Shown here: positions 10,359 through 34,575 of the stretch, piece by piece | How the letters are laid out: every line of letters starts with the position of its first letter | Position numbering within the stretch: the first letter of the stretch is position 1 | IMG/VR virus record: IMGVR_UViG_2671180984_000033 | Source of the DNA: a virus | Lineage: Duplodnaviria; Heunggongvirae; Uroviricota; Caudoviricetes | Direction: 5' to 3' (one strand) | DNA: 41,368 bases | Translations under genes and position numbers: made by a program | Notes under the pieces: model-generated | The model's database searches: none | The model's input: the letters and a program-made list of their open reading frames with translations, nothing else | Told to the model about the DNA's origin: nothing

Positions 10359-11261
10359 TTAACCCTCCAGTGCTTTTTCAGCCAGGGTGATTACTTCAGC
10401 GAGATTTTCATCCGTTACTTCACCAAGTTTCCTGGCTCCCTGTTTTTCCAGAATTGCAATAGCTTCTGCCCGGTAACCCCCTTTTGCTAACTGGAGGATC
10501 AACCCTTCAGCTTGTTTGCGTAGTGCCGCGAAATCAATTGTATGGTCATCTTTGGCGTCATTATTCTGGCTGGAATTTGCTGCGTCTCTGCGTGCAAATT
10601 CTTCCTGCAGCTGAAGGTACTCAACACGGTTGATCTCGATATGGCCTTTTTTCAGCATCTCGTTCAACTTGCGTAAGGTGTGGAGTTCACTGGCTGCTGT
10701 GCCGGATACATTTTTGACGTAAAACGGCCCCGTGCGTTCTCCATCCTTGTTACTGGCCTTTTTCGGCTTAACTTCATCACGCCCATCCGCAGGTGCATCA
10801 AGTAGCTGCTCGGCAAAAGCACGTCGCTCGCCGATGGTTGGCAGGTCGTCCCAGAACTTAAGGATGTTACGGGACAGGTCCAGGAGAGCAGGTTTAAGCA
10901 GCGCCCTGGCTCGTTTGACGCCCTGCAATGCGCTGTCGAGAGCATCAATCTGAACAACTCGTTTATCGCCTTCAGCATCACGGTAGGCAACAGCACGTTG
11001 CAGCATGTCTTCTGTGATAGGGGTGGCTACCGGGTAGAAACCAGCCAGTGCGATAACGTCGCTGAACTCCAGATCATCCAGTGTCATTGCCGCTGACATA
11101 TTTTCAGTTTCAGTTGCTGTATCCCGACATTCCTGCACTCGTGAAATCGTGTCAGGATGCATAACAATGCCTGATGCCATTGTGCGGATAAGACGTTCAA
11201 GCAGCGCATTATGTTGTGCCAGAAGTTGATTATTAAGTTCTAGACTGGTTTCTAAACTCAT
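10359..11261 (-). CDS. Hypothetical phage early protein
   Basis: 300-aa ORF in the leftward operon, acidic and helix-rich. Confidence 0.45.
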
Positions 11262-11440
11262 ACTGTGGTCCTCGCTACAAGGAGAATGAAAGTGATGATC
11301 AGACCGAGCGCAGTGGCAACGGCCAGACCGGTCATCAAATCGAAGTTTTTACGGCGATAACGGAGAACATCGCGCCCCGTCAGTCGATGGATGTGTTCAG
11401 GTTTCATCGGTTGTATTCCTTTTTTCATATCGGGGAGCAC
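11258..11440 (-). CDS. Small membrane protein (first gene of the leftward early operon)
   Basis: 60 aa, Arg-rich N-terminal half and one C-terminal hydrophobic helix (LAVATALGLIITFILLV); 4-nt overlap with the next gene. Confidence 0.4.
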   Translation of the reverse strand: MLPDMKKGIQPMKPEHIHRLTGRDVLRYRRKNFDLMTGLAVATALGLIITFILLVARTTV

Positions 11441-11465
11441 GCTGTTGCGAGTGCGCTTTCAGACA

Positions 11466-11492
11466 TAAAAAAGCCCGTCACGTGAGGCGGGC
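11466..11492 (-). terminator. Intrinsic terminator-like hairpin on the minus strand, upstream of the leftward operon
   Basis: Minus-strand GCCCGCC-TCACGTGA-CGGGC followed by TTTTTT. Confidence 0.45.
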
Positions 11493-11631
11493 AAAGACTA
11501 CACACAGCAATTACATGGATATCATCGAGTGCCTGCTTTTAACCACATCAGGCGAGGTGGTTCTCCTTGTACCCCTACAGTGAGAAATCGTCTAATATCT
11601 CTTCACCCCTACAGTTTGAGAGAGATTAGAT

Positions 11632-12201
11632 ATGTCTGAAGAAAAAGGAATTCTTTCCCGGATAACTGAATCGTTATCCGGCGTGGGAGGAGCAATTAAA
11701 AGCGCGGTTGGAGCAGCAAGAGAGATTCAGAATCTGACTGTCGACTATGCAGTTAAAGAGAAGACGCACATCTTACTCGATAAGCTAATGGATGTTCAGA
11801 TGCAGCAAATGTCGCTTCAGGAGCTGCTGATTGCGGCTAAGGAGAAAATTGTTGAACTGGAAAATGAGAAAGTAAAGCAAGAGAACTGGGCCGCTGAAGC
11901 GGCGAGCTATGAACTTTACCAGCCTATGCGGGGTACTCTGGTCTATCGCAGCAAGCTTTCTGCAGATGCTGACCAATCTCCGGTTTATATTTGTCCCAAT
12001 TGCTACGAGCAAAAGAGAAAATCTATATTGCAAGCGGAAGGTCTGGTTACTAAGCCAGGCCTTGGGCGAGCCGTTAATATGGTTTGTTCGTACTGTAGGG
12101 CTTCCTATCTGTTCAACCGAAATGCTTTAGAAGCCCGACTGCCTTCTGAAGATGAAAATCCGGGGAAGGCAATCACGGATTACGATCCTTACAACCAGTA
12201 A
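11632..12201 (+). CDS. Coiled-coil / zinc-ribbon protein of unknown function (accessory gene)
   Basis: 189 aa; ICPNCY...VCSYCRAS pair of CxxC motifs; convergent with the repressor. Confidence 0.5.
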   Translation: MSEEKGILSRITESLSGVGGAIKSAVGAAREIQNLTVDYAVKEKTHILLDKLMDVQMQQMSLQELLIAAKEKIVELENEKVKQENWAAEAASYELYQPMRGTLVYRSKLSADADQSPVYICPNCYEQKRKSILQAEGLVTKPGLGRAVNMVCSYCRASYLFNRNALEARLPSEDENPGKAITDYDPYNQ

Positions 12202-12251: not shown

Positions 12252-12278
12252 GCGCCCCATCGTCGGGGCGTTTCAACT
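12252..12278 (+). terminator. Putative intrinsic terminator after the zinc-ribbon gene
   Basis: CGCCCC-ATCGTC-GGGGCG hairpin followed by TTTCAACTT. Confidence 0.45.
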
Positions 12279-12520
12279 TGCGTGACTTATCAGTTCGTCG
12301 CGGTGTTGTCCTCTACGCTTACCGTACGCATACGGACTCGGCGCTTACCTCGATCCCATCGGGTGCCATTTCATTTTGCCAGGAGTACTGCGGCTTACCT
12401 GTCACGCGGTTCAGTTTGTTAAAGAGCTGGTATTAAAAAACGCATTAATTATGCGATATCGTATTTATATGCATTATGGGATTTTGTGTCAATACGAAAA
12501 TGAATTATTTTGCAAATAAG

Positions 12521-12547
12521 AAAACCGCCCTTGTGGAGAGCGGTTTG
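12521..12547 (-). terminator. Intrinsic terminator downstream of the repressor gene
   Basis: Minus strand AAACCGC-TCTCCACAAGG-GCGGTTT followed by TCTTATTT. Confidence 0.55.
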
Positions 12548-12576: not shown

Positions 12577-13251
12577 TTAGTACATGCGTAGCGCGGATTT
12601 GGCGATCCCCGCCACGTAATGGATTTTTTCAATGTTTTCGCGTGGTACTCTGACTGGTGGATGATCTTCATTTACAGACATTAGATGGAACAGGCCATCG
12701 CGTTCGAACAAGAAGGTTTTAACCATGACCTCACCGTCCCGGGTAACCACAAGTACTTCATCACCAGGAGTGTAGTCGTGGTTGGGTTCGACGATTACGA
12801 ACTCACCCTCTTTGATTCTAGGCATCATTGAATCACCAACACATTTCAGGGCGTATGCATCTTCATCCTTTGTCGGCCAGTATATGAAACCATCACTGCT
12901 ACCTACTGAATATTGGGTGTCGCTCCAAAGTCCTCCAACGCCTAGCTGAGTGTTTCCCAAAACAGGTACTTTATTAAACCTAAGAGAAATATACGTTTTT
13001 ATACCTGTCGCGTCCTCTTTCTCCATTTCTTGAAGGCTCCTTTCTGCCAGGTCTATTGGTGACACGTGGAAGTAGTCGGCGATCTGCTTTAACGTTGCGT
13101 ATTTCGGATCTTTCACCTCTCCTGATACCAGCCTGTGTAGCGTTGGTTGGTTCAGTTGTAACCGACGTGCCAGCTCAGTTATCGAGCTTATCTTGGCTTT
13201 GTCCATCAGGTACTTGATGTTTTGAGAAAGGATATCGGTAGTATCAATCAT
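12577..13251 (-). CDS. cI-type repressor (HTH plus S24 LexA-like peptidase domain)
   Basis: N-terminal HTH (ITELARRLQLNQPTLHRLVSG) and C-terminal GDSM serine-protease motif; divergent from a cro-like gene. Confidence 0.85.
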   Translation of the reverse strand: MIDTTDILSQNIKYLMDKAKISSITELARRLQLNQPTLHRLVSGEVKDPKYATLKQIADYFHVSPIDLAERSLQEMEKEDATGIKTYISLRFNKVPVLGNTQLGVGGLWSDTQYSVGSSDGFIYWPTKDEDAYALKCVGDSMMPRIKEGEFVIVEPNHDYTPGDEVLVVTRDGEVMVKTFLFERDGLFHLMSVNEDHPPVRVPRENIEKIHYVAGIAKSALRMY

Positions 13252-13392
13252 TTGGATTCATCCATGTTGTATACAGGGACGGTGATTATGCGTTATCGGA
13301 TATTTTAATCCAGGATGATATAGAATTGCCGTATTGCTGAATAATCCGTTTTCGTATAAATTTGCGCTATAGACGAAAGTGGAGACTTAAAT
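13252..13392. promoter_or_regulatory. Divergent immunity promoter/operator region between the repressor and cro-like genes
   Basis: 141-bp AT-rich intergenic region with GGAT/ATCC half-site repeats, TTGCTG and TATAAA hexamers, and a GGAG Shine-Dalgarno before cro. Confidence 0.55.
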
Positions 13393-34154: not shown

Positions 34155-34486
34155 AAAGACCATTGTTGACAGTTTTACTTGTCTGTATCTCCTTCATTTC
34201 CTTTGCTGATACCGGTTGCGGACCATTTACGATCAACTGGAAAGCGCAAGACGGACTTGCAAGGATTAATGGACAGAAACCGGAGACACAGAAAATCATC
34301 TTTCTCAAACAGGAAGGTGATTATGACAATGTGAACATCCAATGGATGATTCCGGGTAATGGGCGTTGGTTAGGGATGGATTTTGTGGCCAGAAATGGCA
34401 AGCCGATCCTCAACGTTGAAGTTATCCGCAAAAATATGGACGACCCTCGGGAGTTCTGGACGTATGATTGCCGGAAGGTGAAGTGA
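34151..34486 (+). CDS. Small secreted protein (accessory gene)
   Basis: 111 aa; N-terminal signal peptide (MKRPLLTVLLVCISFISFA); start overlaps the upstream stop (ATGA); lower GC than the tail genes. Confidence 0.5.
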   Translation: MKRPLLTVLLVCISFISFADTGCGPFTINWKAQDGLARINGQKPETQKIIFLKQEGDYDNVNIQWMIPGNGRWLGMDFVARNGKPILNVEVIRKNMDDPREFWTYDCRKVK

Positions 34487-34575
34487 GTTTGACGTTGTTT
34501 AGACAACCAGACAATTGGTGTTAAACTGCGTAGGTATTACCATTTCCAGACCAAAGATGAAAGCTAGCGTCGAAC

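Follow-up and report, generated by a model that had tools for sequence, protein, structure and literature searches.

RprA is a host Hfq-dependent sRNA, and its network takes in the Rcs/Cpx envelope-stress output, the control of conjugation via RicI in Salmonella, and NarP. The put element of HK022 and the EAR element of Bacillus are cis-acting RNAs that make RNA polymerase resistant to terminators. RprA is cleaved by RNase E, with a shorter form coexisting with the full-length RNA, and this processed form, RprAproc, consists of the last 47 nt of RprA and still regulates narP (PMC9262595, PMC6202311). A phage counterpart of sorts is StxS, an Hfq-binding sRNA that derives from the PR'-tR' transcript of Stx phage, which is both terminated and antiterminated, and that is processed by RNase E (PMC7547250).

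The window, by which we mean the whole 41,368-nucleotide stretch of Caudoviricetes DNA that was analyzed (IMG/VR record IMGVR_UViG_2671180984_000033), contains a short minus-strand module upstream of its early-left operon that shares features with these systems. We think it probable that this is one dual-purpose element, acting both as a terminator like tL1, which controls entry into the early-left operon, and as the source of a released sRNA that mimics RprAproc. The module reads 5'-AAUUGCUGUGUGUAGUCUUU-GCCCGCC-UCACGU-GACGGGC-UUUUUUAU-3' from 11512 to 11465, and is composed of a 20-nt single-stranded 'seed' (11493–11512), a stem-loop (11473–11492), and directly 3' of the stem-loop a U-tract with six U in a run (U6AU; 11465–11472), all on the minus strand. 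The initial annotation had reported a GC-rich minus-strand hairpin followed by six Ts, and both are confirmed here, at 11492–11473 and 11472–11465 respectively.

The hairpin stem has five G-C pairs, a C.A mismatch, and one further pair, closing a loop of 6 nt, and it aligns with the terminator hairpin of RprA. RNAfold gives it an energy of -8.6 kcal/mol, compared with -11.6 kcal/mol for the K-12 RprA hairpin and -13 to -14 kcal/mol for repaired variants. The C.A mismatch is kept in most E. coli copies of the hairpin, and together with a fold weaker than that of RprA or the repaired variants it suggests that the terminator in the window is leaky. A generic terminator scan lists five terminator-like sites in the region against 4.2 expected, which is no enrichment, and the hairpin is absent from its list because the scan tolerates no mismatch and accepts only loops of 3–8 nt. 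MFE folding of the 191-nt interval 11441–11631 gives z = -0.31 and -1.40 for the two strands, with no signal of global structure. Since the scan misses the site and the interval folds with z = -0.31, single-sequence statistics leave the hairpin unproven, and it is the comparison of relatives described below that confirms, from sequence, a hairpin of the terminator type. A GC-rich stem-loop, a U-tract immediately after it, and compensatory stem changes in the homologues are all present, and by these features the hairpin is a genuine Rho-independent terminator in its sequence, predicted to stop RNA polymerase. The 5'UTR of the 49-aa gene that follows has, just past the U-tract, a CUGAAAGCGCA motif (11452–11462, minus strand) that is kept even in diverged relatives and in some of the other contexts in which the module is found.

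The seed AAUUGCUGUGUGUAGUCUUU is identical to the 5' part of RprAproc and is unique in the window, where no occurrence is expected by chance. Alignment with K-12 rprA shows 24 of 24 consecutive nucleotides to be the same (AAUUGCUGUGUGUAGUCUUUGCCC), followed by a hairpin of equal size and then a U-tail. Counting 47 nt back from the 3' end of K-12 RprA leads to A-AUUGCUG, exactly where the phage identity begins, so that the counterpart of the phage element is RprAproc and not full-length RprA. Of what Hfq binding, RNase E processing and target regulation would require in the sequence, the module has the U-tail, a UCUUU ahead of the hairpin, and an AU-rich site at the boundary of RprAproc. When the whole window was compared with all 4227 Rfam families, RprA (RF00034) was the only one with E ≤ 0.05, matching at 11576–11463 (minus strand) with 49.8 bits and E = 1.3e-5; the match is found only in E-value mode, as the gathering threshold of RF00034 is 70 bits, and there is no match in the window at gathering thresholds. 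The alignment has high posterior probability in its 3' half only, with values of about 1 over the hairpin and U-tail. The RprA 5' stem-loop and central rpoS-pairing region are absent, the upstream part of the match being sas-like and of low posterior probability, and there is no promoter-like site upstream that would represent an own (RcsB-dependent) promoter; the module sits inside the pL unit. Scored separately against RF00034, none of 16 phage loci reaches 70 bits, and the best has 55.3 bits (L089). By the Rfam threshold the module is thus not a member of the RprA family, and its sequence is better described as the RprA 3' domain in the form of a mobile terminator/sRNA cassette. With 50–55 bits against the required 70, such copies are invisible in current genome annotation. 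Literature searches with the seed sequence, and for RprA-like sRNAs of phages and prophages, returned papers on host RprA only, and we found no published description of an RprA-like module in phages or plasmids in the literature searched.

Relatives of this region were retrieved via the neighboring 300-aa protein, and hence independently of the RNA, which yielded 54 viral loci; a scan of genome contigs with the same protein gave no relatives. The prophage of E. coli UPEC 26-1 is 99.6% identical across this region. The sequence UUGCUGUGUGUAGUCUUUGCCC, with no more than one mismatch, is present at the same place before the early operon in 49 of the 54, including loci in which the 300-aa protein is 63–77% identical and the upstream sequence cannot be aligned. 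Three of the five relatives without an intact module are truncated or rearranged, and the other two are L052 and L057, the latter having a different hairpin. At about 3780–3830 of L052, the junction of the sas cassette has deleted the seed and the 5' arm, leaving ...GACGGGCUUUUUU, so the early-left operon of L052 is without a terminator. As L052 and L057 naturally lack the module, it and any gate that it forms are dispensable.

Across all copies there are 16 distinct pairing stems with compensatory changes (stem pair 5 is G-C, C-G, A-U or U-A, and pair 6 is C-G, U-A, U-G or G-C), and every stem variant is followed by a run of 5–8 T. The seed is invariant across copies while the stem, the loop, and all flanks vary, and conservation between lineages begins sharply at the A before UUGCUG. 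In L004 and L005, which are E. coli prophages with another immunity, the module comes straight after the stop codon of a Zn-ribbon ORF of 64 aa, an ORF that 20 relatives have (L004 and 19 others) and the window lacks. We note that this ORF (…ECPACQ…HCPGCG…; L004 3148–3339, minus strand) is the first gene after pL, the position occupied by N in lambda.

The module is also found well beyond these relatives. Its exact 22-mer is present in more than 120 IMG/VR contigs, and the matches listed show at least six upstream contexts that are unrelated to one another and never that of host rprA. A second lineage of temperate phages, with 48 loci of which L063 is one, has the module flanked by the immunity region and the first early-left gene, and in Cronobacter phage phiES15 (L184 2501–2544) it is located directly upstream of kil/gam. 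The lytic N4-like Erwinia phage Ea9-2 has it after the thymidylate synthase stop codon (L185 1495–1547), and the seed is found as well in Erwinia jumbo phages and several Escherichia phages. With one mismatch, the module is present in about 800 PLSDB plasmids, which are large, mostly conjugative, and mostly from Klebsiella; in plasmid p98219-contig_3 (L006 3001–3054) it has the form UAGCUGUGUGUAGUCUUUGCCCGCC-GCU-GGCGGGC-U6 and follows a hypothetical gene of 86 aa. The neighbors of the 86-aa gene and module in the plasmids include umuDC, a RES-Xre toxin-antitoxin pair, and hok. Some copies (L068, L090, L115 and L142) are preceded by a tRNA T-arm-like sequence (GGTTCGATTCC...) or by a hairpin and then CACCACAA; tRNA genes were considered at these places, and ARAGORN finds none.

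This distribution bears on a simpler explanation, which we consider unlikely, in which the hairpin is an ordinary terminator of a short post-pL unit, in relatives the 64-aa Zn-ribbon gene, and stayed behind when the lambdoid cassette took the place of this gene, and the 22 nt are kept for a reason at the level of DNA or of termination (such as a recombination linker or an ancestral terminator cassette) with no sRNA involved. The position of the module behind the stop codons of small ORFs in L004 and L005, and likewise in plasmid L006 and Ea9-2, would fit with this, as would the mosaic junction right beside the module in the window, yet a terminator does not need the specific 20 nt upstream of it, and these are the invariant part. 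The seed is moreover the most conserved part of host RprA and begins at its processing site, an identity that an ordinary terminator leaves unexplained, and the module recurs in unrelated genome contexts that include those of lytic phages. The seed has no target within the phage, which is again in keeping with an ordinary terminator: in a search of the phage for complementary sites, 9-mers occur at the expected number and none is of 10 nt or longer.

Upstream of the module there is a junction spacer (11513–11528, minus strand) between an imported lambdoid cassette and the backbone module, and then a sas-like antisense element (11529–11631, minus strand) with two CUGUAGGGGU-loop hairpins and a pseudoknot-like 3' part. 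The plus strand of the element is the upstream and 5'UTR region of the gene in the sieB slot. The interval 11529–11634 shows about 81–83% identity to lambda 34395–34499, which immediately precedes sieB, and to the corresponding place in over 100 records of lambdoid phages, and the P22 sas antisense RNA, as sequenced (PMC13397905, table 2), aligns with 11529–11631 (minus strand). Lambda homology ends at 11529 and homology to the cassette-free relatives L004 and L005 begins at about 11521; a lambdoid cassette of sas and the 189-aa gene has replaced the Zn-ribbon ORF in the window, with the junction at about 11521–11529. The sas-like element is common to P22, lambda and HK446, and its hairpins are located at 11630–11591 and 11586–11561, each with a CUGUAGGGGU loop. 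They are followed by AACCACC..GCCUGA..GUGGUU-AAAAG-CAGGC (11562–11531), which could form an H-type pseudoknot. In lambda the element continues directly into orf28 and is not followed by a terminator.

The gene in the sieB slot (11632–12201, plus strand), which is read antisense by the pL transcript, codes for a 189-aa protein of PHROG 1244, like HK446 gp37 and HK620p16. The protein has CxxC...CxxC motifs, with no match to SieB and none in Pfam or PADLOC, and the gene, which is set in a non-lambdoid backbone, is a candidate for a prophage-expressed exclusion or defense gene that was imported with the sas-like element. The element is like sas in its homology and in lying opposite the 5' end of the sieB-slot gene as antisense; the target gene is not a sieB with an internal esc start.

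The adjacency of the two elements raises an alternative that we regard as improbable, namely that the hairpin ends a sas-like antisense RNA with its own promoter in or near the 189-aa gene, so that a sas-RprA chimera of about 170 nt would control the sieB-slot gene independently of pL. Such a chimera would have its parts in close order, with the sas-like element ending 36 nt before the hairpin and the full-length RprA model of Rfam spanning 11576–11463, but neither the scan nor inspection finds a minus-strand promoter-like site in 11493–11760. Lambda/P22 homology stops 3 nt into the ORF, and there is therefore no conserved sas promoter upstream of the element. The lack of a terminator in the lambda copy makes the arrangement in the window a new one, and the module, judging by its presence in relatives without sas, is older than the cassette that it adjoins.

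About 1 kb upstream of the hairpin, directly after the cI-like repressor gene and that gene's terminator, is a candidate pL, TTGACA-17 nt-TATAAA (12464–12492, minus strand), which is near-consensus and has a predicted start at about 12457. It is missed by the promoter scan solely because the scan demands T at position 6 of the -10 element. The repressor (12577–13251, minus strand) has HTH and Peptidase S24 domains, and its own terminator-like hairpin is at 12546–12522. Operator repeats of the ATTATGCGATATCGTAT type (12448–12515, with no strand assigned; family D1, inverted pair I1) provide three copies of a 17-bp repeat around pL, and the same repeat is found in the cI/cro intergenic region (13285–13357) around a matching rightward TTGCTG-17-TATAAA. 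By sequence and layout, the site at 12492–12464 is the pL equivalent, with its start position predicted. Directly after the predicted start and overlapping an operator repeat is CGCAU-AAUUA-AUGCG followed by UUUUUU (12441–12455, minus strand), which may cause pausing or termination very early in the transcript, or may be no more than the operator palindrome.

The unit measures about 990 nt from pL to the U-tract, and the ORF list contains no credible leftward ORF and no N-like gene between pL and the hairpin, in agreement with the initial annotation, which had seen no N-like gene. That annotation took 11500–11630 to be the only place for the leftward promoter and made the hairpin an attenuator directly downstream of it, which we find very improbable, for although the interval is intergenic between divergent genes, it is the conserved lambdoid sas/sieB-upstream element and has no sigma-70-like site on either strand in the promoter scan, the operators are elsewhere (12448–12515, where they flank pL at 12492–12464, and 13285–13357), and relatives keep the hairpin with unrelated sequence in the promoter interval. 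An attenuator with alternative pairing was considered and rejected: it is unlikely because relatives keep the hairpin behind completely different upstream sequence, and the fold is no better than that of shuffled sequences. A long-range pairing in the MFE structure of 11441–11631 was likewise set aside as an attenuator, being specific to this mosaic junction.

The first gene 3' of the terminator codes for a 49-aa protein of PHROG 11981 (11258–11407, minus strand). It most likely starts at ATG 11407 and not at GTG 11440, because an AAGGAA Shine-Dalgarno sequence precedes ATG 11407, the 98.7%-identical phage vB_EcoM-611R5 is annotated with a 49-aa product for this gene, and PHROG 11981 aligns to residues 12–60 of the longer ORF from GTG 11440. 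The hairpin does lie upstream of the first leftward gene, as initially described, with 58 nt between the U-tract and ATG 11407, and it is the start given there, 11440, that is better replaced. The promoter scan finds no promoter-like site in these 58 nt to separate the hairpin from the first gene, and read-through of the hairpin is therefore required. Thus, of the earlier suggestion that leftward early transcription would need either antitermination or attenuation, the need for read-through holds, and attenuation falls away with the unrelated upstream sequences of the relatives. The operon that lies behind the gate codes for the 49-aa protein, the 300-aa protein, a DUF2800/PD-(D/E)XK exonuclease, an Enc34-type SSB, and a DNA polymerase; no function is assigned to the 49-aa and 300-aa proteins by PADLOC or Pfam.

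At the other end of the unit there is a conserved pL leader of 177 nt (12252–12428, minus strand), made up of a boxA and the next 165 nt or so. The boxA, GCUCUUUAACAA / GCTCTTTAACAA (12427–12416, minus strand), is located about 30 nt after the predicted pL start, and its 12-mer is exactly the boxA of the K-12 rrnB leader and has no other exact copy in the window. Next comes a domain with three copies of GGUAAGC, which is closed by a GCGUGAC/GUCACGC pairing, and then a terminal hairpin, CGCCCC-GACGAU-GGGGCG, at 12270–12253. Of the 49 relatives, 26 have this leader before the module, where it stands behind at least five different types of promoter and operator and thus travels with the early unit and not with the immunity specificity; in the other half of the relatives (those of the L004 type) the terminator is kept, and the leader is a different one without boxA. 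Alifold supports the structure of the leader with two covarying pairs only, and its fold has z = 0.62, with no folding excess. No similarity of the leader to a known family was found with Rfam in E-value mode over the whole window. Deletions between the repeats are seen in L048, L161 and L143, and the central domain is swapped in L057 and L174. The initial annotation had proposed a search for boxA/boxB-like or put-like RNA elements, and we find a boxA of the exact rrn type with no boxB hairpin beside it, there being a GCCCC-N6-GGGGC hairpin about 145 nt downstream. A second boxA/nutR-like site was searched for downstream of cro, and none was found.

BoxA recruits NusB/NusE, and the chief effect of the resulting complexes is to keep Rho off untranslated RNA, rrn operons and CRISPR arrays being examples; those of the rrn type mainly counter Rho and not intrinsic terminators. 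An untranslated early RNA of about 990 nt is in need of just such protection from Rho, and at minimum the boxA and leader should provide it. Read-through of the hairpin is probably the joint result of a sub-optimal stem, with its conserved C.A mismatch, and a modification of RNA polymerase at the boxA and leader; the complex, or the additional RNA in the manner of put or EAR, may also suppress the intrinsic terminator. This phage family accordingly offers a problem of early antitermination without N, together with a clear candidate for the cis element.

In the preferred reading, that of a tL1-like gate which also yields an RprAproc mimic, the repressor-controlled pL would start a noncoding immediate-early unit of about 990 nt that reads in order through the boxA leader, the antisense of the 189-aa moron gene, and the sas-like element, and that is closed by the hairpin. 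The terminator would take the role of lambda tL1 and gate the early-left operon of replication and recombination genes. Transcripts stopped at the hairpin would be trimmed at the AU-rich GU/AAUU site, giving an RprAproc-like sRNA with the 3' seed of the host RNA, and we infer that such an RNA would bind Hfq and regulate targets. As pL is operator-controlled, no RNA would be expected in a quiet lysogen unless another promoter exists, unlike the situation with StxS.

A broader proposal is possible, and we put it forward only tentatively. In this, Enterobacterales phages, both temperate and lytic, and conjugative Klebsiella plasmids would share a mobile RprA 3'-domain cassette of seed and terminator, set at early or operon-end terminators, termination would free an RprA mimic that hijacks or competes with the host regulon (envelope stress, conjugation, NarP), and in the phage described here the cassette would be paired with the boxA-led 177-nt leader as a protein-independent processive antiterminator. 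Should the element be expressed as proposed, a mobile element would have copied the 3' domain of a core Hfq sRNA into its own termination checkpoint. This would link induction of the phage, or infection by it, to the host RprA network, and the idea raised by StxS, that phage operons under antitermination give rise to regulatory RNAs, would be extended from late to early operons. The module could also help to explain the role of the processed 47-nt form of RprA, because it is exactly that part which is kept in many unrelated genomes.

Of the systems compared, P22 sas/sieB-esc concerns the neighbor of the module and not the module itself. The interval 11529–11631 (minus strand) aligns with sas RNA and, like it, runs antisense to the 5' part of the sieB-slot gene; the gene in the window is of PHROG 1244 and is not sieB, and the sas-like element adjoins the hairpin without being part of it. 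HK022 put and Bacillus EAR are similar to the pL leader in that a conserved RNA lies directly 3' of an early promoter in a phage without an N-like gene. The leader in the window differs in having a boxA, in its length of about 177 nt, in showing no similarity to known families, and in a structure that lacks support from covariation. The layout of the lambda tL1/N/nutL region is reproduced in the same order, with a repressor-controlled pL, a boxA, an intrinsic terminator and a delayed-early left operon, and in lambda too the pL transcript crosses the sieB-slot gene in the antisense direction. In contrast to lambda, the window has no N gene and no boxB beside the boxA, which is of the rrn and not the lambda type, and it has a conserved RNA of 165 nt after the boxA and a terminator in the form of an sRNA-like module.

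The module itself is closest to RprAproc (RF00034), with which it shares AAUUGCUGUGUGUAGUCUUUGCCC followed by a GC-rich hairpin of seven positions, a 6-nt loop, and a U-tail, with the same predicted fold. It differs from RprA in being without the 5' stem-loop, the rpoS-pairing center, and an own promoter, and in being embedded in the pL unit; the interior of the phage stem is different and carries the C.A mismatch, and the score is below the family threshold. StxS differs in being transcribed from a constitutive late promoter and in pairing with rpoS, whereas the RNA proposed here would come from an early, operator-controlled promoter and would carry the seed of the RprA 3' domain. The two have in common a functional link to the RprA/DsrA/ArcZ network and, as far as can be inferred for the module described here, the same logic, in which a phage operon under antitermination has a terminator that also provides the 3' end of a regulatory sRNA released by RNase E.
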